From a virus (lineage: Duplodnaviria > Heunggongvirae > Uroviricota > Caudoviricetes), in the IMG/VR virus record IMGVR_UViG_2690316109_000010: a stretch of DNA of 36,079 bases. One strand, written 5' to 3'. Every line of letters starts with the position of its first letter. The stretch's first letter is position 1. Made by a program: the position numbers and the translations under genes. This document shows, one piece after another, positions 2,369 through 32,650 of this stretch. The notes under the pieces are model-generated. The model made no database searches. It was not told the DNA's origin and worked only from the letters and a program-made list of their open reading frames with translations.

Positions 2369-5300
2369 TCAGCTGATACTGATGCCTGCGGTGGCTTTCT
2401 TCATCACCACAACCAGCAAATCGCTGATACTTGCTGTGGGATACCAGTCATTTACCAGCCATGCTGACACCGAAAACTCCAGCGTCATGTGGCCGTGACC
2501 AGCAGGCATATCAATAACACCACTGTAAATCAGCGTATTATCCAGCGCGGTACGGTTATAAATTTCAGCACCATTTTTCTTCACTATCAGGCGGCATGAG
2601 GAGTAAATATCAGTATGCTCTCTCTCATGTTTAGCACCGCTGAATGCCACCGCCGGAATAACAATCTGCCGGTCAAACGGCTGATCGTCATAAATCCTGA
2701 CGGTAATGGTCCCTGATGGCCACCGCTCCGGTGCCCGGGAGTCCCGCGGGAAAGCCTTACCCACTGTTTTGACAATATCGCCTTCAATCTGGTTGGCTGA
2801 CAGTTTCCCTTTAATCTGACAGTTCTCATTTATCGTAACGTTGTTGAGCGTCCCGGAGTTCGCATTCACACTGCCACTGATATCTGCATTTTTAGCGGTC
2901 AGCTTTCCGTCCGGTGTCAGGGAAAATGCAGGAGGATTACCGCCGCTGGTAATGGTGGGAGCCGTCAGATATTTCAGGAACACTTCATTCATGAATATCT
3001 GATCACCCTGACCAACAAACATCGGTTTTGTGTTGCCATTTGCAGGATTAATCATCGCAATCCTGTCTGCCGCCAGCAGCACCTGACTCTGCATGCCGTC
3101 GGGGGTGTTCTCAATACCGGCACCGATACCCGCGATATAAAGGCGTCCGTCCTGCATCTGCTGCAGCTTCACAGCCCACATGCTGTTCAGATTATTATTT
3201 GTATCAACCTGAACCTTCTGTATCTGCTGGATCGCTGCACTCTGGTCTTCCAGTTTCTTATTGACGGTCTGTGTGATTTCATTGCTGACATCCGTAATGG
3301 ACGTCCTGATTTCAGCCAGGTCAGGCGCAAGCTGACCGTTATCAATCTGCGTCCACAGCTCCTGAGCCAGATGGGTTTTCCCTATCTCGCCTTTGAAAAA
3401 ATCCAGATAGCCGGATGCGTCATCACTCGGCTGACCAACAGCCTCCACGAATGCCGATTTGCCAACGGTGTTCACACTGCGAACGTAAAAATAATAATTA
3501 TGGCCCGGCCTGATATTGATACTGGCGGCTATCCAGTACAGCGCCGTGCCAAGATAGCGTGCTGTGGTTTCAACCTGCCTGATATCCGCAATCCGCTTTT
3601 CCGAGAACCAGAACTCAAACTGTACCGTCGGATCATAAACCGCAAGATGCGGCGTGGCGGTTATCTGAAAATAGCCCGGCGTCAGCTCAATCCGCGACGG
3701 CGCTGCCGGTGCGGCAATCCGGAACGATACCGACGCCGGATCGCCCTGCTGCCCCCACGCATTTACTGCCCGGACTGTCAGCCTGTAGTTCCCCAGAGCC
3801 AGTTGTGTGAAGCGGTAAGTGGTTTCCGTCGTCCGGGCCGTGCTGACCAGCCGCTCACTGCCGTCATCCGCTGCCACGGTCAGGCGAAGCATGAAACTCA
3901 CGCCCTTCACCACCTTCGGCGTGTCCCAGCGGGCCAGTACCTGATACTCCCCGCTGTCTGCGGTGACTTCGGCAGTCAGGTGCTGCACTGCTGGCGGCGT
4001 GACACCATTCACCGTGCCGCTCTGGTCGCCGTCAAAGTGCGCCCCGTTATCCACGATGGCTTCTTTTTCCGGTACATGCTGCACGGCGGTGATGGCATAC
4101 GTGCCGTCGTCGTTCTCACGGATACTCACGCAGCGGAACAGGCGCTGGCGCAGCGTCGGCAGCTTCAGCCCCCATACGCTGTATCCGGCAACGCCGTCAG
4201 GAACACGGCTCACTTTTACCTTCACGCCGTCGGTGACGGACTGGACCTCCACGCTGACCGGATTGCCACTTCCGTCAACCAGGCTTATCAGCGTGGTACC
4301 GGAGGATGGCAGCGTGATTTCACGGTCGAGCGTCAGCGTCCGGGTCTGGCTGTTCACCGCCAGCACGCGCCCGCCGGTGCTGATCCCCGCATAGTCATCA
4401 TCGCAGATTTCAATGACATCGCCCGGCACATGGCGAAGCCCTTCCGCACCCACGCTGAAGTCCACGGTCTGCGTTTCCAGTAGTTCCGTTTTAATCAGCC
4501 ACAGCCCGGCGCGGTGCGCCTGCCCCCGGCTGGTACAGCCAAAGGCATCCATCTTCGTGACGTTACGACCGTAACGGAGAATGGCCTGCGTATCTTCAAC
4601 AAGCTCTGTCGCCGTCTCCCAGCCGTTATCCGGGTCAATCCAGTTCACCTCAACGGCATTATGACGGTCCTTCAGGGCACTGAAGCTGTAGCGGAACGGC
4701 GCGCCATCATCCGGCATCACCACATTACTGCGGTTATAGGTCCACACCTTATCCGACGGTCGGTCCTGCACGAACGTCAGCGTCTGCCCGTTCCATACCG
4801 GCATACAGCGCATCGCCGAGCAGAAATCACTGAGAACATCCCACGCCTTGCGCTGTGTGGTCAGGTAGGCATTACAGGTGATGCGCGGCTCCGTGCCACC
4901 AAAGCCATCCGGCACCGACTGGTCGCAATTCTGGCCGATGACATACAGCGCCCATTTGTCCACATCCGCCGCACCGAGACGCTTCCCCATGCCGTAGCGC
5001 GGATGGGTCAGCATATCCCACAGACACCAGGCCATGTTGTTGCTGTATGCTGGCTTAAACGTTCCGTCCCAGATACCGCTGTATTGCCGCGTCTGCGGGT
5101 TATAGTTCGACGGCACCTGCAGAATGCGCCCGCGAAGATGATAATTACGGCTCACCTGCTGGCTGCCGAACTGTTCCGAGTCCACCTGCACGCCGACCAG
5201 TGCCGTGTTCGGGTAGCACTGTTTCACATCGATGATTTCGGTGTATGACGACCAGAGCGTTTTGTTCTGCAGCTGGTCTGTGGTGCTGTCCGGCGTCATT

Positions 5301-5848
5301 CTGCGCATCCGGATATTAAACGGGCGCGGCGGCAGGTTATCCACCACCACCGAGGCCAGATACTGCGAGGTGGTTTTGCCCTTAATGGTGATGTCTTTTT
5401 CCGTCACCCAGCCACCATTACGCTGTATCTGAACCAGCAGGCGAACTTCCGACGGATTCCGGTCCCCCTTTGAGGTGGTTTCCACCAGTGCCTGCACACC
5501 GAAGGTAAAGCGCAGTCGGTCGATGTTTGCCGACGTGATGGCGCGGGTGATCGGCGTGTCGTATTTCACTTCCGTACCCAACACCGTCTCGGAGCCGGAG
5601 GATTCAAATCCCTCCGGCGGAGTCTGCTCCTGCTCACCAGCCCGGAACACCACCGTGACACCGGCGATGTTGGTATTCCCATCACTGTCCAGCACCGGCG
5701 TACTGTTCAGCAGCACGCTTTTTAATCCATCCATCGGACCTTCAATCGGCCCTTCACTGATGGCATCAATCACACTCAGCAACTGCGTGGACTTCAGGTT
5801 GTCCTTCGCTTCGCGCGGGGTATGCCCCTTACTGCTTCCTTTACCCAT
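2369..5848 (-). CDS. J: Tail tip/host specificity protein J (central tail fiber)
   Basis: 1159 aa; N-terminus [38 protein letters not shown]... and most of the length match lambda J as I recall it; the last ~250 aa diverge. Confidence 0.95.
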
Positions 5849-11200: not shown

Positions 11201-11290
11201 ATTCAGAAGGTTTTTGATACGGGGAATTTCATTTTTAAACTCTGCCGCATCAATCCCCAAATCAATGACCAGGTTGGCTATCTGGTCCAT
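8234..11290 (-). CDS. H: Tail tape measure protein H
   Basis: About 1018 aa, coiled-coil-rich, with C-terminal ...NNDGTNGQIGPAALKVVYDLGKKAAADF...DGG as in lambda H. Start set at the ATG at 11290 (MDQIANLVIDL...) behind a GGAGGTG Shine-Dalgarno; the track start at 11320 is a TTG. Confidence 0.85.
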   Translation of the reverse strand: MDQIANLVIDLGIDAAEFKNEIPRIKNLLNGAASDAERSSARMQRFMERQTQAARQTMQAASSAATAASVHAQTVEKSAQAHERMAREVEQTRQRMEALSQKMREEQAQAMALAEAQDKAAAAFYRQIDSVKQASAGLQELQRIQQQIRQARNSGGIGQQDYLALISEVTAKTRVLTQAEEEATRQKVAFIRQLKEQATRQNLSSSELLRAKAAQLGVSSAAEVYIRKMEQAGKATHSLGLKSAAARQEIGVLIGELARGNLGALRGSGITLANRAGWIDTLMSPKGMMLGGVIGGIAAAVYGLGKAWYDGQKEGEEFNRQLSLTGHYAGVTAGQLWTLSRAISGNGITQHAAAGALAQVVGSGAFRGNDIGMVARAAAQMERSVGQSVSDTINQFKRLKDDPVNAAKALDNELHFLTATQLEQIRVLGEQGRSSDAARIAMSALAEETGRRTADIDNNLNALGSTLKYLSDLWSRFWDAAMNIGREDSLDEQISALQEKVSRAKRLPWTASSSQVEYDQQRLNELQEKKRQKDLQDAKEQAERNYQEQQKRRNAENAALNRMNETEAARHQREIARINAMQYADQAVRDAAIQRENERYEKVLASGKKKTRETRNDEATRLLLQYSQQQAQVEGQIAAARQSAGIATDRMTEAHKQLLALQQRISDLDGKKLTADEKSVLARKDELIQALTLLDVKQQELQKQTALNDLKKKTIQLTSQLAEEERAQRQQHDLDIATVGMGDQQRQRYQVQLSLRQKYQQQLEQLRRDSEQKGTYNTDDYRKAEQALTESLNRQLNENRRYWQQLEIAQGDWKNGVLRALQNVTEKADNTAGTVEQLFTSAFSSMSDWLATFCTTGKLNFKSFTSSVLSDMSRIMAQIALMKAVKGIASALPFDFVANADGGVYQSADLSRYSGTVVNRPTFFAFAKGAGVMGEAGPEAILPLRRGADGKLGVVADIGGSGMAMFAPQYNIEINNDGTNGQIGPAALKVVYDLGKKAAADFMQQQARDGGRLSGAYR

Positions 11291-11591
11291 AACGCACACC
11301 TCCGGAAATACCTTCCCCAAGATGCATCAGTTCTTCGTCCGTTCGCTCCGGTATCCCGTTCTCTTCCGGTAAAAGGCTGAAATCAGCCACCGCAGCATCA
11401 CTGCTACCGGACACCATTCTCACGATCAATGCCTTCAGCGAGGCAAACTGCGCATCCATCCACACATCACTGAAGCTCTGCATCCGGAAATAATCGCCCC
11501 ATTCACCAAGCTCAGTGGCCGACATTTCCGACAGCATCCGCCGCCAGTCTGCCCGCCGGAACTCCCGGGCAAGCCGCATGACAAACTGCAT
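11262..11591 (-). CDS. T: T segment of the tail assembly chaperone G-T fusion (-1 frame relative to G)
   Basis: 109-aa ORF in the -1 frame overlapping the 3' end of G, in the position of lambda T; the frame stays open upstream into G. Expected to be made only as G-T by programmed frameshift. Confidence 0.6.
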   Translation of the reverse strand: MQFVMRLAREFRRADWRRMLSEMSATELGEWGDYFRMQSFSDVWMDAQFASLKALIVRMVSGSSDAAVADFSLLPEENGIPERTDEELMHLGEGISGGVRYGPDSQPGH

Positions 11592-11599
11592 TTCCCGCG

Positions 11600-11989
11600 T
11601 CAGGACTTTTCCGGCGTCAGCACCTCATGCTCCAAATCCCCGGCATTCTCAATGGCTCCCATACCGCTCAGCGACAGAACCATCTCCGCCCCCGCTCCCA
11701 GGGCATCATACGACCATGTTGTAATAACGGATGCGCAAAGCGTCTCAACATCCTGAGACTGTTCCGCATTCCACAGTGAGCGGGAAACCAGCCAGGCATT
11801 GATATCCATCCCCATCCGCAGAAAAGCAATCTGTCGTTCAGCCTCCGGCAGTTCTCCCTCCCCGGCATCAAACTTTGCCGTTCGCTGCTGAACAAACGCC
11901 AGATATTCAATTCTCTGCAGCCCGGACAGCTCACTGAGCACCACGGACTGCTTTTCATAATTAAACGTGCCCTGTTTCAGAAACATCAT
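11600..11989 (-). CDS. G: Tail assembly chaperone G
   Basis: Lambda G-like (MMFLKQGTFNYEKQSVVLSELSGLQRIEYLAF...). Start at the ATG at 11989 or 11986 after GGTGGAG; the track start at 12028 is a TTG inside the upstream hairpin. Confidence 0.8.
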   Translation of the reverse strand: MMFLKQGTFNYEKQSVVLSELSGLQRIEYLAFVQQRTAKFDAGEGELPEAERQIAFLRMGMDINAWLVSRSLWNAEQSQDVETLCASVITTWSYDALGAGAEMVLSLSGMGAIENAGDLEHEVLTPEKS

Positions 11990-12002
11990 GTTCTCCACCT
12001 GC

Positions 12003-12027
12003 AAAAAAGCCCCGGATAACCGGGGCA
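12003..12027 (-). terminator. Terminator-like hairpin between V and G
   Basis: Inverted repeat gccccgg-ataa-ccggggc with a following U-tract on the minus strand, immediately upstream of the G ribosome-binding site. Confidence 0.45.
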
Positions 12028-12046
12028 AATGATGAGTATCGTCCTG

Positions 12047-13789: not shown

Positions 13790-14065
13790 TTACTCAATAA
13801 AGATCATTGGCTTACCGTTAAAACGTTCATGCCGTGTGACCGTCCATTGTTGTCCGTCATAAACAACGCGATCCCCGCGCCGTGGGCGGTATCCCGAAGA
13901 AAACACCACCAGAGAGACCGCAGGTCCGGACAGAGCATTCAGCTCTGCCAGTGTTTCTCCCGGGATCACAGTCATATCGGCATCATTAATCGAGGCTGTC
14001 TTTCCCATCTTTCTGACCGTGATCGCATCCATACGCGCTGCCAGCCTGGAAAAGGGATCAGACAT
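13790..14065 (-). CDS. Head-tail joining protein (FII-like position)
   Basis: 91 aa with ATG start; assigned by position between the head genes and Z; weak pattern resemblance to gpFII. Confidence 0.45.
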   Translation of the reverse strand: MSDPFSRLAARMDAITVRKMGKTASINDADMTVIPGETLAELNALSGPAVSLVVFSSGYRPRRGDRVVYDGQQWTVTRHERFNGKPMIFIE

Positions 14066-14381
14066 TGAGTTTTACCGGCACTTCTTCTGCACTGGTTCCG
14101 GCATCTGCCCAGACAACCCCGACCAGCGGATCAGAGCCGCTGTTAGTCAGCTGAACTTTTCCGGACTTCAGATAAACCTTCTTACCCGTTTTCATATCAT
14201 CCGTTTTCAGCTTAGGCAGCATAAACACACCTTCGGTCATGCCGTCGCCTGTTTCACCCTGTGGAATATCGGTCAGCGCCACCGCAAAAATATTACCCAC
14301 CTGCACCAGATCTCCGCTGCTGATGGCTGCACTGGCAACAATCGCCACCGTTTTTCCTTCTTCTACAAAATTCTTTGCCAT
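14058..14381 (-). CDS. Putative head decoration or head completion protein
   Basis: About 108 aa from the ATG at 14381 (MAKNFVEEGKTV...) after GGAGACAG; lies immediately downstream of the capsid gene. The track start at 14426 lies inside the upstream terminator hairpin. Confidence 0.45.
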   Translation of the reverse strand: MAKNFVEEGKTVAIVASAAISSGDLVQVGNIFAVALTDIPQGETGDGMTEGVFMLPKLKTDDMKTGKKVYLKSGKVQLTNSGSDPLVGVVWADAGTSAEEVPVKLNV

Positions 14382-14424
14382 AACTGTCTCCGCACAGCCC
14401 CGTTCAGGGGCTGATTTCAGGTAC

Positions 14425-14444
14425 AAAAAAAGCCCTTACGGGCC
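14425..14444 (-). terminator. Terminator-like hairpin downstream of the capsid gene
   Basis: Short gccc-ttac-gggc hairpin followed by seven U on the minus strand (plus A run 14424-14431). Confidence 0.4.
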
Positions 14445-14467: not shown

Positions 14468-16426
14468 TTACGCCGTACATTTCACCAGACCGCGGTGATC
14501 AACTGGCGCGACACCGGCGTCAATACGCACTTTCGTTGTCACGCCATCCACACTGAAGCCCTCCATCTGATCAATATATGGCGTATCCACACCGTTGAGA
14601 TAAGCCACTTCAATCGTATCGGAGCCTTTTGACGCAGCCAGGTAGAAGGTGGTCTGGCTGTTATCATCAAGACGAGGCTCTGCAATAACGGTCGCAAAAT
14701 CTTTCACCGGGTTAATAATACCGGCGTTAATGTCAGCCCCCTTGACACTTGAGGAGCGAATGACCTGGTTAGCAACAGACTCCATCGCCGTCGGTACCAG
14801 TACGAACGCAGGACGAATATTCAGATGACGCTCCCCCTCTTTCTGAACGCGCATCAACTGGCGGGCTTTATCCAGCGATGCCACGTCCATTGCAGCGCTC
14901 TCCAGTACGTTTGCATGTTTCGCTTTATCGAACAGACTTACATTATCTGTGGAGATTTTCGGGTTAGACGTCAGAATGGCATAAACCAGATCGGCAATAG
15001 TGGATTTCGCCGCACGGCCCAGTTTCATCGGGACATCGGTCAGCATATTCAGATCATCATTGATAATGGCCTGACGGGTGATACTGAACAGCTCGCCATA
15101 GGTCGCCAGTGCAATAGTGGCCTGTTTATCTCCGGTGGTGACGTATTTATATTCCGCCCCTTCACGCACCTGACGCAGAGCACTGAAGCCCCCCATACCC
15201 ACACGATGGGCAATTTTAAAATCAGACAACTGACCTTTCCGCGTCCACTGTTCATAGGTTTCAGGGGCATCTTCCCAGCCCTGCAGAATGGCTTTGTTCG
15301 CAACATCCAGCAGAATATTACCGAAGTCAGACGTACTGTGTGTGAACGCCGCACCGACCATCTGCATCGGGTTATAACTGGAAACCCCAATACCCCGTTC
15401 AGTCAGTGACATACGGGCATATTCACGCAGGGTCATCCCGTTGTAGACATTATCACGTTCGGTTTTTTCAAATCCGGCACGCGCCATCAGCGCCTGGCGG
15501 ATCCCGTCCCCCACAAAATTACCGTTACCGGCATAAATATGAGCCGGGGTATTTTTATTGGATGGCGTGGACTCGCGCCCCATCTCGTTCAACAGCTTTT
15601 CGCGGGCCTGCTCCAGCGAACATTCAGGATCGGCAAGACACTGAGCCTGCAGCGTCTGATAACGCCCGCCAAACATGGCAAACAGATCATTAATACCGTT
15701 TACACGCGCTTTTTGCTCTGCCAGTACCTGCGCACGGATACTGTTTTCATCCACCACGGGTGCTGCTGCCTGCACTGGCGTCCGGGAGGCTGCAGGTTCA
15801 TTATCCTGTACGCGTGGAGCACTGTTGCGTGGCGGAGTAATCATGTTTCGAATGGATTCCGGCATCTTTGTAAATTCCTCTGTACGTTTTGACTGAATAC
15901 ATGCCATTGCCTTAACGGCTGGCGTCACCTGATCAGCAAATCCATGTGCCAGACATTCGGCACCGGACATCCAGGTCTCATCCGCCAGCATGGCAGCAAT
16001 TTCATCGGTGGTTTTCCCGGTTTTCTGTGCATAAGCGGGTAACAGAACCGCCTCAACCTTATCGAGCAGGTCGGCATAGGTGCGCATGTCCTCCGCATCA
16101 CCGCCCGTAAAGCCAAATGGTTTATGAATCATCATGAAGGTGTTTTCCGGCATAATGACCGGGTTTCCCACCATCGCAATGATCGACGCCATTGACGCCG
16201 CCACACCGTCGACATAAACGGTAATGGACGCACCATGTGTTTTCAGCGCATTAAAAATGGCGATGCCTTCAAAGACATCGCCACCCGGTGAATTGATATG
16301 GAGATTAATGTGGGTGATATCGCCCAGTGCATTCAGATCACTGATAAACTGCTTCGCTGTAACACCCCAGAAACCAATCTCGTCATAAATATAAATATCC
16401 GCGTCACTCTGGTGACCAGCCTGCAT
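14468..16426 (-). CDS. Prohead protease (ClpP/S49-like) fused to a major capsid protein domain
   Basis: About 652 aa from the ATG at 16426, just after the portal stop. N-terminal part DADIYIYDEIGFWG...INSPGGDVFEG...MASIIAMVG is ClpP-like; the C-terminal ~300 aa is capsid-like. The track start at 16687 lies inside the portal gene. Confidence 0.7.
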   Translation of the reverse strand: MQAGHQSDADIYIYDEIGFWGVTAKQFISDLNALGDITHINLHINSPGGDVFEGIAIFNALKTHGASITVYVDGVAASMASIIAMVGNPVIMPENTFMMIHKPFGFTGGDAEDMRTYADLLDKVEAVLLPAYAQKTGKTTDEIAAMLADETWMSGAECLAHGFADQVTPAVKAMACIQSKRTEEFTKMPESIRNMITPPRNSAPRVQDNEPAASRTPVQAAAPVVDENSIRAQVLAEQKARVNGINDLFAMFGGRYQTLQAQCLADPECSLEQAREKLLNEMGRESTPSNKNTPAHIYAGNGNFVGDGIRQALMARAGFEKTERDNVYNGMTLREYARMSLTERGIGVSSYNPMQMVGAAFTHSTSDFGNILLDVANKAILQGWEDAPETYEQWTRKGQLSDFKIAHRVGMGGFSALRQVREGAEYKYVTTGDKQATIALATYGELFSITRQAIINDDLNMLTDVPMKLGRAAKSTIADLVYAILTSNPKISTDNVSLFDKAKHANVLESAAMDVASLDKARQLMRVQKEGERHLNIRPAFVLVPTAMESVANQVIRSSSVKGADINAGIINPVKDFATVIAEPRLDDNSQTTFYLAASKGSDTIEVAYLNGVDTPYIDQMEGFSVDGVTTKVRIDAGVAPVDHRGLVKCTA

Positions 16427-16439
16427 CCTGAACCAGGAA

Positions 16440-17948
16440 TTATTCTTCGGACTGGTCGTCGGTGTGCTGCGGCTCCTGTCGTTTCGTTGCGGCACTGCTG
16501 CCTCCTTTATCACTGGCCGGATCGGTATCAAATACCAGATCCAGCTTGCGGTTTTCATCAATTTCGGCCTTGCGCCGACGTTTGACATCATCCGGATTAC
16601 GACCACCTGCACGTACCCAGTCTGATTCTGTCGCTGCTCCACCACGAATCTGAATTTTCCAGGCCTCAGCCTCCTTAACAGGGTCAATCCACGGCATCAC
16701 CGGTCCGGAGTACACCGCGGTATACAGTGAAGAACGGTCAAGATCGCGGGGTAGCCTGATAACACTGGATGCCACAGCCTGTTTCAGCCAGGCACGATAC
16801 ATCGGGCGGGTGACAGCACCAATAAACCAGTCCTGCAGGATCAGGTAGCCATCAGTGGATTCAACCAGCTCCTGACGCTGGGCGCTGTAAGTGCCGTTAT
16901 AGTTGCGCGCTGTACTGGAAAAACTCAGACGACTGCCCGCCGCCACGGCACGCAACTGACCATTACGAAAAGTTTCAAGGTTAGGATTGGGGCGATCCGA
17001 CTTCACCATTCCGATTTCTTCGCCGGGTTTCAGATCGTCGTAAATAATGCCTGGCTGAATGGTAAGCTCGCGTTCCTTATCCTTGCTGCCATTACCATCC
17101 GGTTCATAGCTCTGCCCGTCGCCTTTGCGGATGTACATCCCCAGAGCAGCGGCGATCCTTGCTGCAGTCAGCTCATAATCTTCATAATCTTTCAGGGCAC
17201 TGAGGCGGATCAGCACACCGGACAACAAAGACGTCCCGCGCATCTGGTGCAGACGGCGAACAAATTTAAGATGCAGCATTCGCTCTGCATCCACTTCTTT
17301 GGTTTCCATCTGCCGTCCGGATACGGGACGGCTTTTATACACCAGATATTTTTCGGGACGCCCCCAGTCATCAACAAACACGCCCTGATTCAGCCTGTTG
17401 CTCTCATCACTGGTCATGGGAATAAAGTCTGGCTCGAGCGCCTCCAGCCAGAAATGAACACCGGCAGAAGGCGTCAGGCTGTTTATGCGCCCGGAAACCA
17501 TCTGGGCAAACACCTCACCATCGCGCAGCCAGGTACGCAGCATCAGACGTTCCAGCATCGGACGGGTAAACTGCCCGGTGACTTCCGGGCTGACAGACCA
17601 TTCACTCCATCGGGTGCGAATCTCCGCTGCCAGATCACGGGCAATGGCCCCATTGCGTAATACCGGATGTGGCTCGACAATAATCCCGTTTTTCCCCACC
17701 ACCCGTTCTTCCAGCTTGTCAAATACACCAATAACCAGATCGTGGTTGTTATCAAGGTAACGGGCCTGCTCACGTAACGACACGGCCCCGTACTGGCTTA
17801 GCTGGTCGGCAGTTCGGTTCTCCCGTCGGGCTTTGTGTGTCCGCGTCGTTTTTACGGCTTCATAAGCCTGGATCACCGCACGGGAACGCAGCCTTGCCGC
17901 TTTCCATCCAGGTGAAAAAACGCCAATCACATCATCAAGAATTGCCAT
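16440..17948 (-). CDS. Portal protein
   Basis: About 502 aa from the ATG at 17948 (MAILDDVIGVF...), which overlaps the W stop as TGATG; sits between W and the protease as in lambda. Confidence 0.8.
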   Translation of the reverse strand: MAILDDVIGVFSPGWKAARLRSRAVIQAYEAVKTTRTHKARRENRTADQLSQYGAVSLREQARYLDNNHDLVIGVFDKLEERVVGKNGIIVEPHPVLRNGAIARDLAAEIRTRWSEWSVSPEVTGQFTRPMLERLMLRTWLRDGEVFAQMVSGRINSLTPSAGVHFWLEALEPDFIPMTSDESNRLNQGVFVDDWGRPEKYLVYKSRPVSGRQMETKEVDAERMLHLKFVRRLHQMRGTSLLSGVLIRLSALKDYEDYELTAARIAAALGMYIRKGDGQSYEPDGNGSKDKERELTIQPGIIYDDLKPGEEIGMVKSDRPNPNLETFRNGQLRAVAAGSRLSFSSTARNYNGTYSAQRQELVESTDGYLILQDWFIGAVTRPMYRAWLKQAVASSVIRLPRDLDRSSLYTAVYSGPVMPWIDPVKEAEAWKIQIRGGAATESDWVRAGGRNPDDVKRRRKAEIDENRKLDLVFDTDPASDKGGSSAATKRQEPQHTDDQSEE

Positions 17949-22996: not shown

Positions 22997-23392
22997 CTAA
23001 CCTCGCATGTCAAAGCCAGATTTCTGAAAATCTCTGTAGACTTCCGGATTGTTGAAGGCCGGAAATTTGGCTTTATGAGCTGCGGACTTTATCGCTTCGC
23101 AATAGGCTTTATCACCGTTACTGGTAGATATTTTTAACGCCGTGCCATCCTGAGAGAATTCCATATGCAACCTGCATTTTTTCCCTTTCCAGTTATGCGG
23201 CTCATCAAGTTTGGCATTAATTGCAGCTCTGATTCCCCGCGCTTGCGCCCCCCATTCATCCTGATCATCCCAGCGTCCTGAACTGCAACTACCTGTAGCA
23301 GTAGTTTTGTGGCAATCTGAAGGGTGTAAAGGTGTGCATCCCGCAACAAAACCGACCCAAAAAGTCAACATAACGATTTTCTTTAATCCCAC
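22997..23392 (-). CDS. Lipoprotein with TolA domain III-like C-terminus (copy 1)
   Basis: 131 aa from the GTG at 23392 (GAGGAG 6 nt upstream); signal peptide MGLKKIVMLTFWVGFVAGC with lipobox; C-terminus KKCRLHMEFSQDGTALKIS...GDKAYCEAIKSAAHKAKFPAFNNPEVYRDFQKSGFDMRG. Confidence 0.7.
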   Translation of the reverse strand: MGLKKIVMLTFWVGFVAGCTPLHPSDCHKTTATGSCSSGRWDDQDEWGAQARGIRAAINAKLDEPHNWKGKKCRLHMEFSQDGTALKISTSNGDKAYCEAIKSAAHKAKFPAFNNPEVYRDFQKSGFDMRG

Positions 23393-23542: not shown

Positions 23543-23971
23543 TCAGGGTTTAAAATCCAGCACCCCATTTTGAAATACTTTATATACTTCCGGCGAAGGG
23601 GGGGCAGGTATATCAGCATTCTTTATCGCATTCATCGCTTCACGACATAAATCGAGGTCTCCACTTTCTCTTTTAACCTCCAGTAGAAGGCCATTCGGGG
23701 CCATATGCATTCTCAGTGTACACTCTTTTCCTGAATACTTACTCGCATCCCCGAACTGTTTTTCGATGGCGCTCTTGATTTGATGGGCATACAGACGGAT
23801 ATCCTCACTAACATCAGAAGTACGTTCAGATGAACTCACATACTGTGTCTCTATTGCTTTATCGGAGTAATATGATGTACGGTCATGATAATTTGTCGAT
23901 ACAGCATCAGTGCACCCGATAATAATCCCACTAATAATCAACGTAAGAATTGATGCGCTACGAAAACCCAT
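23543..23971 (-). CDS. Lipoprotein with TolA domain III-like C-terminus (copy 2)
   Basis: 142 aa from the ATG at 23971 after GAGGA; signal peptide with lipobox IIGC; C-terminus YAHQIKSAIEKQFGDASKYSGKECTLRMHMAPNGLLLEVKRESGDLDLCREAMNAIKNADIPAPPSPEVYKVFQNGVLDFKP resembles the TolA C-terminal domain as I recall it. Confidence 0.75.
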   Translation of the reverse strand: MGFRSASILTLIISGIIIGCTDAVSTNYHDRTSYYSDKAIETQYVSSSERTSDVSEDIRLYAHQIKSAIEKQFGDASKYSGKECTLRMHMAPNGLLLEVKRESGDLDLCREAMNAIKNADIPAPPSPEVYKVFQNGVLDFKP

Positions 23972-24341: not shown

Positions 24342-25537
<1,196 letters not shown>

Positions 25538-30420: not shown

Positions 30421-32214
30421 CTATCTGAAACGCTCAAACAGTGCAACCATTCCTTCAGGAGCGATATCTCTGACCTGGGCTCCTTGCCGCTCAACCCACT
30501 TACCAGCTATATGTGAAGGGGTATCCTGACCTAAAATTTCGAAGACGAAAACCGTCTTATCGAAGTATCGAACGCATTTAAGATGAGTGTTTATGTAGGA
30601 CTTAAGCGGTTCTGAAAGTCCTGAGCGTCCTACCCGATCAGAGATGTCTTGGAACATCTGGTCAAGGTTCTTTCCAGCGTGGTTCGCTTCGTGATCAACA
30701 CCAGTTATATGGAAGCCGTTATAAGATAAAGCCTTGCTTCCGAAAATCTCCTGAACTCTTGTTGCAGTATGCGCATTTTCAGCAACCCCTACAAGAACAT
30801 AGCCCTTGTGTCCTCTGCCGATATTAGCAATAGCAGCGCAGGTCTCCATAATTTTTTCGAAGGAGCGTTCATCAAAGGAAGGTGATGGGTCTAAAGTATA
30901 GAAACCTTGTTTAAAATCGTAGGCCGCCTGCTCAGTTATTGAGTTAGTGAGTAAATTTTGGAGCTTCGTGATCCAATGAACTTTTGCAGGATCTGGATTT
31001 TGATCGTTTTCAAAAAAGCCCTGAATCCAACCAATTATTGAATCGACCATTCTACTCCGGTTGTCAGCCCCCCATCTCCCTCCATCTTGAACCTGAATAT
31101 TCCTACCGCAATCTTTCAGCCGCCCAATGAGGCCCGCACTATCTGAAACCACCATACCCCTTTTAATTATCAGGTCATGCATGGCGAGAAAGACCACCTG
31201 AAAGTAACGGGGGACTGGATTACCACCATTTCCGTTAGGAAAAATCAAACCAGAGAATGTCGTTTGAGCCTGACTAAGAAGTAGGATTATCGCATCATGT
31301 ACTCTTTGATAATCAAGATCGACTAGCTCCCCGGTTCTCTTTTTAATAGCTTGATCAATCGCTTCGAATCTTGCTTTGCTGGCTAAAGCTTCCGGGGATA
31401 TTGCTCCATAGTAGTCATCTAGAAGCTCTGTACGCGAGGCCAGAGGTTTGTCAGAAACCATATAAGCAAGAATGTCCGCCACTATCTCTTCATCCCGGCT
31501 CTGTCTTAACTGCTCCTTCGTCAATATTCCGTTAACAATCCAGAAGACGCTATCGGCACTAATGCCGTAGTCTAAATCCTTGTTCGTGATGCTAATTTTT
31601 TTCATCTCGCTTAAGAGCAAGAGATCCGCGTTAGATGTGTCACCACGAACTCTTGCGGAGATCTTCCGAACACATTCCGCAAACACATTTGTAGCACCTG
31701 CTGCACGCAACTCCTGTCGTGAGAGCTGACGTCCACCTGAGTTAATTCGCCTGAACACTTCCTCAACTGAGTCTCTCTCGGCTGCTTCATAAATTGAAAG
31801 CGGGACAGGATATGATGCTATTGCAAGACACTGGCTTCGATCAAGGAGTGGCATCTTCTGATCAATGACTCCGCGATCTAATAGGTCTTTCGTCGTCGCG
31901 AACGTATTTAAATCAAAGTAGAATCCATTAAATGAAAAATCGTTCGAGATAAAAGACATGATGGCATTCATACGCTGCATCCCATCAATAATCTCGAGAG
32001 TGCCGTCTTTTCTCCCAAGAGGTTCTGCTAACAAAATGATAGGTATCGGGAATCCCTTGATTATCGAGTCAATAAAATTTTGTTTTTCCTCAATAGTCCA
32101 AATCAATTTACGTTGATACTGTCGATTCACAACGTATTTTTTATCCTGATAGTTGATAAACACTCGCTCAACTTGTTCGCCACGAACTATTAGTTCTTGT
32201 TGTAACGTTGCCAT
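30421..32214 (-). CDS. DUF262 (ParB-like nuclease/NTPase domain) protein, putative anti-phage defense or Type IV restriction-like enzyme
   Basis: About 597 aa from the ATG at 32214 (AGGACGG Shine-Dalgarno); N-terminal YVVNRQYQRKLIWTIEEKQNFIDSIIKGFPIPIILLA...IIDGMQRMNAI is the DUF262 signature (DGxQR); C-terminal half unassigned (possible DHEANH His-rich motif). AT-rich gene with its own AT-rich upstream region and terminator. Confidence 0.7.
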   Translation of the reverse strand: MATLQQELIVRGEQVERVFINYQDKKYVVNRQYQRKLIWTIEEKQNFIDSIIKGFPIPIILLAEPLGRKDGTLEIIDGMQRMNAIMSFISNDFSFNGFYFDLNTFATTKDLLDRGVIDQKMPLLDRSQCLAIASYPVPLSIYEAAERDSVEEVFRRINSGGRQLSRQELRAAGATNVFAECVRKISARVRGDTSNADLLLLSEMKKISITNKDLDYGISADSVFWIVNGILTKEQLRQSRDEEIVADILAYMVSDKPLASRTELLDDYYGAISPEALASKARFEAIDQAIKKRTGELVDLDYQRVHDAIILLLSQAQTTFSGLIFPNGNGGNPVPRYFQVVFLAMHDLIIKRGMVVSDSAGLIGRLKDCGRNIQVQDGGRWGADNRSRMVDSIIGWIQGFFENDQNPDPAKVHWITKLQNLLTNSITEQAAYDFKQGFYTLDPSPSFDERSFEKIMETCAAIANIGRGHKGYVLVGVAENAHTATRVQEIFGSKALSYNGFHITGVDHEANHAGKNLDQMFQDISDRVGRSGLSEPLKSYINTHLKCVRYFDKTVFVFEILGQDTPSHIAGKWVERQGAQVRDIAPEGMVALFERFR

Positions 32215-32650
32215 TATGTTGCCGTCCTGAGCCATTTATAGAGATATAACGATTAGGCAAAACCTGCCCTACATCACACGTACGTATCATAATAATTGAA
32301 AAGTCATAAAAATAAATATTCTTCTACAGCATCGCCCGGCATACTTCAAATGCACAAAAATAAAACACTATAAATCAATATCTTATGGAATTATTTTTGT
32401 AAAGGTGAATTGAACTTGTTACTCACTAAATTCTCCTGAATTTATGTTTTTTTTGCTAATGGACAATAATGTTGAACTGTAGATATTTGTTTTAATTGGA
32501 ATTAATTTTCGGAAAATGCTCGTATCTATGACAGCTTTTGGCACAAAGCGGACAACCACGCCAGATCTACCCTGTGCCATGAAAAATGAGAATGTCAATT
32601 CACTCTTGAACTAATGCTTTTTAATCTAGTAACGTCTAAAATACCTAACA

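Follow-up and report, generated by a model that had tools for sequence, protein, structure and literature searches.

The window considered here is a 36,079-nucleotide stretch of DNA from a tailed phage (Caudoviricetes; IMG/VR record IMGVR_UViG_2690316109_000010). Where lambda has separate C, Nu3, D and E genes, the initial annotation proposed that a single long open reading frame (ORF) carries an N-terminal ClpP/S49-type protease domain and a C-terminal capsid-like domain. We asked what this ORF encodes, where it starts and whether it is a genuine fusion. In the end, we concluded, with a probability of about 92%, that its product is the precursor of the head shell in a lambdoid Escherichia coli prophage with a head of the mEp460/cdtI/Gifsy-2 type, and that a protease, a linker, a presumed scaffold and a Mu gpT-like capsid domain follow one another in this precursor in that order.

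The fusion gene and its family

The minus-strand frame has no stop codon and no frame change from 16696 down to the stop codon that ends the gene, and read from the ATG at 16426 it gives a 652-aa protein. The initial annotation's central claim, that one ORF joins a ClpP-like prohead protease to a major capsid domain, is borne out by the HMM domain assignment that it had proposed as a check: Pfam CLP_protease (PF00574) matches the N-terminal part (residues 23-168 of the 652-aa form, E 6.9e-36, 124 bits against a cutoff of 20.2), Phage_capsid_4 (PF25209) matches the C-terminal part (residues 355-649 of the same form, E 2e-54), and the NCBIfam fusion family NF045540 spans both (984.1 bits, cutoff 475, residues 9-651 aligned). 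The NF045540 model, 652 positions long, was curated for exactly this ClpP-protease plus capsid architecture. PHROG 133 (phrog_133) likewise matches over the full length (E 0), and in E. coli IHE3034 the RefSeq pipeline PGAP annotates the same 2028-nt CDS with the product name 'ClpP-like prohead protease/major capsid protein fusion protein'. The gene is an ordinary, already catalogued phage head gene of the Gifsy-2 type. The plus-strand ORFs across the region (194, 117, 105 and 95 aa) gave no Pfam or family match, nor did any family match a minus-strand ORF of 113 aa that lies in a different frame; all were taken as non-coding. The features of the locus are collected in Table 1.

Table 1. Features of the head-gene locus, in window coordinates; residues are numbered on the 675-aa protein
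Feature	Position	Strand	Remarks
Lambda-family portal gene	16440-17948	-	1509-nt CDS in RefSeq and Ayreon; final 56 nt shared with the 5' end of the fusion gene
Shine-Dalgarno sequence AAAGGAGG	16501-16508	-	5 nt upstream of GTG 16495-16493, still within the portal gene near its 3' end
Protease–scaffold–capsid fusion gene	14468-16495	-	675 codons plus TAA stop at 14468-14470; best definition here
ATG, residue 24	16424-16426	-	Probably an internal Met
ClpP-related head maturation protease domain (MEROPS S14 type)	15923-16402	-	Residues ~32-191
Predicted catalytic Ser101	16193-16195	-	Motif GVAASMAS; aligned to GxAASMG, the serine motif of solved ClpP
Predicted catalytic His124	16124-16126	-	Motif MMIHKP; aligns with MIHQP of solved ClpP
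Glu173	15977-15979	-	Motif ETW; aligned (1y7o) to the ClpP catalytic Asp position
Met211 (then Pro212)	15863-15865	-	Invariant, just past the protease domain; speculative Nu3-like internal start
Variable Pro/Ala/Val/Arg-rich linker	15752-15832	-	Residues 222-248; length varies among homologues
Conserved helical central segment	15542-15751	-	Residues 249-318; presumed scaffolding (delta-domain-like) part
Major capsid protein domain	14471-15541	-	Residues ~319-675; Pfam core 14480-15364
Intrinsic-terminator-like hairpin GGCCCGTAAGGGCT plus T7 run	14424-14444	-	24 nt past the stop codon of the fusion gene
Head decoration (cement) protein gene, 107 aa	14058-14381	-	Separate gene; functional counterpart of lambda D
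Head-tail protein gene, 91 aa	13790-14065		PF13856

Translation start

The gene had initially been placed at 14468-16426, with an uncertain N-terminus since the frame is open into the portal gene. The stop end and the openness of the frame, as far as 16696, are correct; the upper end is probably not, and the uncertainty is largely resolved in favour of the GTG at 16495, from which the protein has 675 aa. We suggest on the strength of comparison with homologues that translation in vivo probably starts at this GTG and not at ATG 16426. The duplex with the anti-Shine-Dalgarno sequence is worth -11.6 kcal/mol before the GTG and only -2.2 kcal/mol before the ATG, and the Shine-Dalgarno motif preceding the GTG is conserved in 1720a-02 and mEp213. 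In Gifsy-2, Fels-1 and MD8, the position of the ATG is occupied by ATC or ATT (Ile), so these genes must start upstream of it. Immediately upstream of the ATG (16430-16438), the amino acids Ser-Trp-Phe/Tyr are conserved although the portal stop has already been passed, and their codons change synonymously, with both families of serine codon in use (TCC, TCG, AGC and AGT). PGAP chooses the GTG, and the large protein clusters of the family in the database are 675 aa long.

A start at the ATG, giving the 652-aa form and no overlap with the portal gene, would have the attraction of a canonical start codon 13 nt past the portal stop; it is the start annotated in Ayreon, mEp460 and PSTCR8lys, and it agrees with the length of the NF045540 model, whose alignment begins at residue 9 of that form. 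Set against the very weak ribosome-binding site, the isoleucine codons and the protein-level conservation further upstream, we consider this start unlikely. Annotation of the start is inconsistent among records: phage entries give proteins of 652, 659 and 707 aa, there are at least four different start annotations overall, and the comparative evidence presented here favours the portal-overlapping GTG. The Lys-Gly-Gly codons of the portal might explain in part why AAAGGAGG is conserved upstream of the GTG.

Protease domain

The N-terminal domain belongs with the ClpP-related head maturation proteases, scoring 214.7 bits against the model of that name, NF045542 (cutoff 120), and solved ClpP chains in the PDB match the family profile with E values down to 3e-22. 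PDB searches with the whole protein and with the whole-family profile gave ClpP chains only, among the matches listed. Neither of the predicted catalytic residues, Ser101 and His124, varies among 7 divergent and 22 closer homologues. Glu173 is also invariant in the homologue alignments and, judging by its position, is possibly the third member of the catalytic triad. The S49 type that the initial annotation had offered beside ClpP has to be given up, as no Peptidase_S49 match was found and TIGR00706, the model for SppA, gives 22.4 bits where 155 are required; the type is S14/ClpP. Lambda gpC shows a remote likeness only (hhalign E 4.8e-4, probability 32%).

We also considered the cellular ATP-dependent ClpP. 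Its model TIGR00493 gives 59.9 bits against a cutoff of 308.6, and other ClpP models likewise fall far below their cutoffs. Instead of standing alone in a protein of about 200 aa, as cellular ClpP does, the domain sits within a phage structural protein of 675 aa.

Linker, central segment and a putative internal start

AlphaFold2, run on the 675-aa protein with a shallow alignment of 22 sequences (75-99% identity), gave an unusable model (mean pLDDT 35.9), and the ClpP and HK97 folds are therefore supported here by sequence only. In this low-confidence model, the linker, which is an indel-rich and unconserved block of the alignment, is disordered, and the sole stretch with pLDDT of 60-85 covers residues 250-305, all of them helical (H250-273, H280-288 and H294-304). 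We presume, by homology, that this middle part acts as a scaffold. In BLASTP, the central segment gives a marginal hit to the Nu3 region of lambda (E 0.37), and in the MD8 homologue a scaffold has been assigned between the protease and capsid parts (PMC8508860).

An in-frame internal start at Met211 would add a protease-less product, scaffold plus capsid, beside the full-length protein. Such nesting has a precedent in lambda, where C (4418-5737) contains Nu3 (5132-5737). The Met211-Pro212 pair adjoins the end of the protease domain and is invariant in the 7 divergent and 22 closer homologues, and in 7/7 of the divergent ones GAGGA or CAGGA stands 10 nt upstream (-6.0 to -8.8 kcal/mol); however, the spacing is long, and a Shine-Dalgarno-like match just as good (reaching -6) stands upstream of about 10% of the codons of the whole gene. 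In 7/7, codon 203 stays AAA and codon 206 (GAG or CAG) keeps its third base, against a background in which a single codon is kept in only 2.9% of invariant degenerate codons, but the conserved Glu-Glu-Phe and Met-Pro may be mere protein constraints, and a synonymous-site scan puts local synonymous conservation barely above the gene average, a weak signal. No experimental hint of a start at Met211 was found. On balance, we regard the second product as improbable, more so than the ATG start. If it were made, the Met211 start would set the ratio of protease to shell, and the number of protease domains packaged per procapsid would be tunable.

Capsid domain

[quoted passage not shown] When this part of the family profile was searched alone, and only then, solved capsid chains emerged from the PDB: 8rkx and 8rkc, described as 'Mu GpT domain-containing protein' (E 1.1e-8), and 9jod, 'Major capsid protein' (E 3.4e-5). 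Labels in GenBank such as 'protease/scaffold protein', 'head-tail preconnector protease C' and 'Nu3' would suit a protein with protease and scaffold functions only ('C/Nu3') and a capsid protein encoded elsewhere. We hold this to be very improbable: the C-terminal 300 aa are what match the capsid families and the solved capsid chains, the space between the fusion ORF and the tail genes holds only the 107-aa decoration and 91-aa head-tail proteins, a survey of ORFs and Pfam matches between the portal and tail genes found no other capsid-protein candidate, and the coat protein gene of Gifsy-2 is reported to be fused. Many GenBank phage records seem to be without a capsid gene because the fusion is mislabelled as 'protease', 'Nu3', 'scaffold protein' or 'terminase'.

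Neighbouring genes

The order portal, fusion gene, decoration gene and head-tail gene is the same in Gifsy-2, Fels-1, MD8, mEp213 and PSTCR8lys, and the site homologous to the hairpin that follows the fusion gene is annotated as a terminator in Ayreon and mEp213. Lambda D had been counted among the genes replaced by the single ORF; this is incorrect, as the decoration gene stands apart at 14058-14381 and its product matches Phage_cement_2 (PF09956; E 4.3e-21) and phrog_122, 'head decoration' (E 2.8e-47). Its start was taken from the Ayreon and RefSeq CDS.

The suggestion that the head is of a different lineage from the lambda-like tail proves right for the protease, capsid and decoration proteins but not for the terminase and portal, which are distant members of lambda families. 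Z, U and V of the tail share 51-55% identity with their lambda counterparts. The capsid and decoration proteins gave no BLASTP match to lambda E and D, and hhalign against E gives E 0.25. The large terminase has the GpA_ATPase and GpA_nuclease domains of the lambda family, and the portal protein matches Phage_portal_2 (E 8.4e-82) and TIGR01539 portal_lambda (447.7 bits), with 22% identity to lambda gpB (E 4.5e-8); terminase and portal together lie at 22-25% identity to their lambda counterparts.

Programmed read-through from portal to protease was considered in view of portal-plus-fusion proteins of 1135-1159 aa in the databases. The place at which the frame switches differs in each of these, which points to independent indels or errors and not to a programmed frameshift.

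Distribution and intactness

The fusion gene is carried by 2017 of 5426 complete E. coli genomes (>=80% of the query covered). Sixteen phage records hold the intact fusion ORF at 99% identity, and about 58 further records hold it at 56-78%; a gene ~99% identical is present in the isolated phages mEp460, cdtI, Ayreon, Tritos and PhiR55_1. The hosts of phages with the fusion ORF are Escherichia, Salmonella, Klebsiella, Providencia and Pseudomonas, the most divergent sequences being 56% identical. Although frame-fusing indels do occur nearby, as the 1135-1159-aa proteins show, the chance that a frameshift error or mutation has artificially joined two separate genes is negligible, because the ORF is intact in many phages and uninterrupted in the 2017 E. 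coli genomes, with no frame break between the domains across the five phage host genera.

Proposed head assembly

The domain identities, the conserved catalytic residues, the orthology with Gifsy-2, the intact conserved ORF, the separate decoration gene and the comparative evidence bearing on the start codon are established here. How the head may be assembled we suggest from the homology to Gifsy-2 and from what HK97 and lambda do by analogy. On the lambda-family portal, the precursors would assemble together into a procapsid, their protease and scaffold parts directed inwards. The packaged protease domains would then remove the protease, linker and scaffold portion in a predicted autoproteolysis, leaving the C-terminal capsid domain as the mature shell; we infer the cleavage events and their positions from homology. 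Upon DNA packaging the shell would expand, and the decoration protein would cement it. As the architecture already has an NCBIfam model, a PHROG, the Gifsy-2 study and several genome papers, the main value of the present analysis is correct annotation.

Comparison with known systems

In the five isolated phages named above the gene is essentially the same (99% aa identity), with annotated starts that vary by record, and the Stx phages, mEp213 and LLS carry more distant NF045540/PHROG 133 relatives (74-78% aa identity). The fusion protein is 70-72% identical over its full length to those of Gifsy-2 and its paralogue in Fels-1 (70% to Gifsy-2 itself). In both, protease, variable linker, central domain and capsid domain follow in the same order, and the neighbours are the same too, an overlapping lambda-family portal gene upstream and a small decoration gene downstream. 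What sets them apart is no more than ordinary sequence variation: the Gifsy-2 and Fels-1 proteins have longer N-terminal leaders, lack the Met encoded at 16426 and carry small insertions ahead of the capsid domain. The 'tripartite capsid gene' of Gifsy-2 is STM1034.3n.Gifsy2, which is annotated as 'Clp protease involved in capsid processing'; it was reportedly studied experimentally by Effantin et al. in 2010 (Virology 402:355).

Gp5 of the Pseudomonas phage MD8, grouped here with the F10-like phages, has the same three-part layout at 57% identity, but differs in its host, its GC-rich genome and a small insertion in the capsid domain. This homologue has been analysed, with modelling, as a protease, a scaffold and a capsid domain of the HK97 fold that comes closest to gpT of Mu (PMC8508860), and the same fusion architecture has been reported for Paracoccus prophages (PMC6536676).

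Lambda C, Nu3, D and E serve the same function and, like the genes here, are found after a lambda-family portal gene; in both systems the end of the portal gene is overlapped by that of the protease, and the trimeric decoration protein is separate. In lambda, however, protease/scaffold and capsid are separate genes, and the protease is of the S49 and not the S14 type. By analogy, the precursor would resemble HK97 gp4/gp5, where the scaffold is built into the capsid precursor as an N-terminal domain removed by the protease and there is no free scaffolding protein. The HK97 protease is encoded by a separate gene and belongs to the herpesvirus-like S78 family, and the HK97 shell is crosslinked and has no decoration protein. 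The capsid domain itself falls in the wider group of Mu gpT-like proteins, the likeness covering part of the domain; in Mu, gpI/gpZ (protease/scaffold) and gpT (capsid) are the products of separate genes.

The fusion gene and its family

The minus-strand reading frame is open from 16696 to the TAA at 14468-14470, and with ATG 16426 as start it encodes a protein of 652 residues. For this form, Pfam gives CLP_protease at residues 23-168 (E 6.9e-36) and Phage_capsid_4 at residues 355-649 (E 2e-54), with a weaker additional match to Mu-like_gpT. The protein scores 984 bits (curated cutoff 475) against NCBIfam NF045540, 'ClpP-like prohead protease/major capsid protein fusion protein', and 214.7 bits (cutoff 120) against NF045542, 'head maturation protease, ClpP-related'; PHROG 133 matches it end to end. 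The domain content agrees with the initial annotation, which had proposed a single ORF carrying ClpP-like protease and capsid domains. A family search of opposite-strand ORFs across the region matched none. One representative of this curated family has been studied experimentally, and the gene, a textbook member, is already known.

In the 675-residue numbering (from GTG 16495), Ser101 (GVAASMAS) and His124 (MMIHKP) fall on the catalytic Ser and His motifs when aligned to solved ClpP structures, and they are invariant across fusion homologues; Glu173, also invariant, aligns with the catalytic Asp of ClpP. Beyond the protease, a conserved segment ends in the invariant Met211-Pro212. The AlphaFold model has a pLDDT of 60-85 only for residues 250-305, which are all helical. 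The capsid-domain profile matches the solved chains 8rkx and 8rkc ('Mu GpT domain-containing protein', E 1.1e-8) and 9jod ('Major capsid protein', E 3.4e-5).

Features of the head region and of the rest of the prophage (aa, residues in the 675-residue numbering)
Feature	Position	Strand	Remark
DUF1441 protein			small-terminase position; upstream of fusion gene
Large terminase			gpA-type; upstream of fusion gene
Small W-position gene			upstream of fusion gene
Portal			lambda-family; upstream of fusion gene
Fusion gene	14468-16495	-	as best defined
ClpP-related protease	aa ~32-191
Linker	aa 222-248		Pro/Ala-rich, variable length
Conserved segment	aa 249-318
Capsid domain	aa ~319-675
First hairpin	14424-14444	-	GGCCCGTAAGGGCT + T7 run; terminator-like, strong; between fusion stop and decoration gene
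Second hairpin	~14394-14412		CAGCCCCTGAACGGGGCTG; after first hairpin
Decoration protein			separate, 107 aa; downstream; Phage_cement_2, phrog_122
PF13856 head-tail protein	13790-14065	-	91 aa; downstream of decoration gene
Z, U, V, G/T, H, M, L, K, I, J, then Lom			lambda-like; downstream of head-tail gene
G/T-like chaperone pair	11600-12028, 11262-11591 (window 11262-12028)	-
TolA-domain ORFs	22997-23392, 23543-23971	-	E 1.3e-14, 2.4e-23
IS5-type transposase	24410-25390	+	DDE_Tnp_1 + DUF772
GmrSD-domain protein	30421-32235	-	604 aa

Occurrence and conservation

Over the 4.1 kb that hold the portal, fusion and decoration genes, identity to the isolated phages PhiR55_1, phi458, mEp460, Ayreon, Tritos, HannyBb and cdtI is 98-99.5%. 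Among 5426 complete E. coli genomes, 2017 carry the fusion gene with a query coverage of 80% or more, and PGAP uses the fusion-protein name there. Full-length homologues of the protein are encoded by Stx phages and VT1-Sakai (77%), mEp213, mEp043 and LLS (74%), a Klebsiella phage (74%), Fels-1 (72%), Gifsy-2 (70%), a Providencia phage (64%) and some 30 Pseudomonas phages of the F10/MD8 group (56-57%). A seven-way alignment of divergent fusion homologues has no frame break between the domains, and an artefactual frameshift joining two genes is therefore excluded.

GenBank labels the gene inconsistently ('Nu3', 'preconnector protease C', 'protease/scaffold', 'head maturation protease', 'Major Capsid Protein', and even 'terminase protein' in PV340537 and PV340538), and many phage records therefore seem to be without a capsid gene.

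Start of the gene

The N-terminus, which the initial annotation had left uncertain, is indeed placed differently in public records, with annotated lengths of 652 (Ayreon), 659 (1720a-02), 675 (RefSeq) and 707 residues (Tritos). GTG 16495 has AAAGGAGG upstream with a 5-nt spacer (duplex energy -11.6 kcal/mol); ATG 16426 is practically without SD (-2.2). Gifsy-2, Fels-1 and MD8 have an Ile codon (ATC or ATT) where ATG 16426 aligns, and their genes must therefore start further upstream. The three codons immediately 5' of this ATG encode an invariant Ser-Trp-Phe/Tyr, with both Ser codon families seen (TCC, TCG, AGC, AGT); since they lie beyond the portal stop, only translation in the fusion frame accounts for their conservation. 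From these sequence comparisons, we suggest that the gene probably starts at GTG 16495. This start would give a 56-nt overlap with the portal gene; in lambda, the protease gene C overlaps the portal gene B too, by 20 nt.

An additional internal, in-frame start at Met211 would resemble that of the scaffold gene Nu3 inside lambda C. GAGGA or CAGGA lies 10 nt 5' of Met211 in all seven divergent homologues (-6.0 to -8.8 kcal/mol). Roughly 10% of the gene's codons reach an equal upstream score, and synonymous conservation nearby is scarcely over average; the signal is weak, and we regard such a start as unlikely.

Public databases also contain some 15 'portal + protease + capsid' proteins, 1135-1159 residues long, that read through from one gene into the other. 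They can arise only since the fusion frame is open for about 250 nt further upstream, where it overlaps the portal 3' end (16440-16696). The site of the switch from portal to fusion frame differs in each, which marks them as independent 1-nt indels or errors of sequencing; a programmed event is rejected.

Genomic context

A head module of other than lambda lineage beside a lambda-like tail had been proposed, with one ORF in place of C, Nu3, D and E. The comparisons with lambda uphold this mosaic in substance: by BLASTP, Z, U and V are 51-55% identical, no window protein matches E (capsid) or D (decoration), and the match of the fusion protein to C/Nu3 is marginal (E 0.028); hhalign finds a remote protease relationship to C (E 4.8e-4) and leaves a capsid relationship to E unsupported (E 0.25). 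The terminase and portal, however, are distant members of the lambda families (only 25% and 22% identity), and the D equivalent is a separate gene rather than part of the fusion.

For the first hairpin, the homologous sites in Ayreon and mEp213 carry a terminator annotation. Acting together, the two hairpins might dampen transcription of the head-tail and tail genes that follow. The PF13856 ORF is named 'Gifsy-2' in Pfam (described as 'ATP-binding sugar transporter from pro-phage'), 'DNA breaking-rejoining protein' in PGAP and FII-like head-tail joining protein by the Ayreon authors. Its position suggests a head-tail connector, so its database names look wrong. The G/T-like pair of tail assembly chaperone ORFs has the layout expected for the conserved -1 frameshift.

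Elsewhere, an IS element has inserted into the late regulatory region of the prophage: its transposase ORF runs opposite to the phage genes, with the lysis genes on one side and the Q antiterminator on the other. The insertion may render the prophage defective. The two adjacent ORFs with a TolA C-terminal domain are transcriptionally upstream of lysozyme and Rz; such TolA-like morons are an unusual cargo. A stretch of low GC content (0.40-0.45) encodes the protein with the GmrSD N-terminal (DUF262-type) domain, probably an anti-phage defence function that the prophage carries.

Probable head assembly and related systems

The mature shell protein of Gifsy-2 is reportedly the C-terminal part of its precursor, the protease and a central domain of about 200 residues being removed. 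The domain identities and the orthology to Gifsy-2 are established by the comparisons above. Taken with the literature on Gifsy-2, MD8 and Paracoccus, this suggests how the window's gene most likely works, and we infer a scaffold role within the fusion protein. The precursor would assemble on the portal, the internal protease domains would cut off its N-terminal two-fifths, and the shell would expand and then bind the decoration protein. A paper citing Effantin et al. 2010 describes mEp213-type head proteins as similar to those of Gifsy-2. The MD8 homologue has been interpreted as a protease (residues ~15-210) followed by a middle part resembling a scaffold and a capsid domain of HK97 fold, nearest to that of Mu (PMC8508860), and 17 Paracoccus prophages carry the same ClpP-plus-gpT fusion (PMC6536676).
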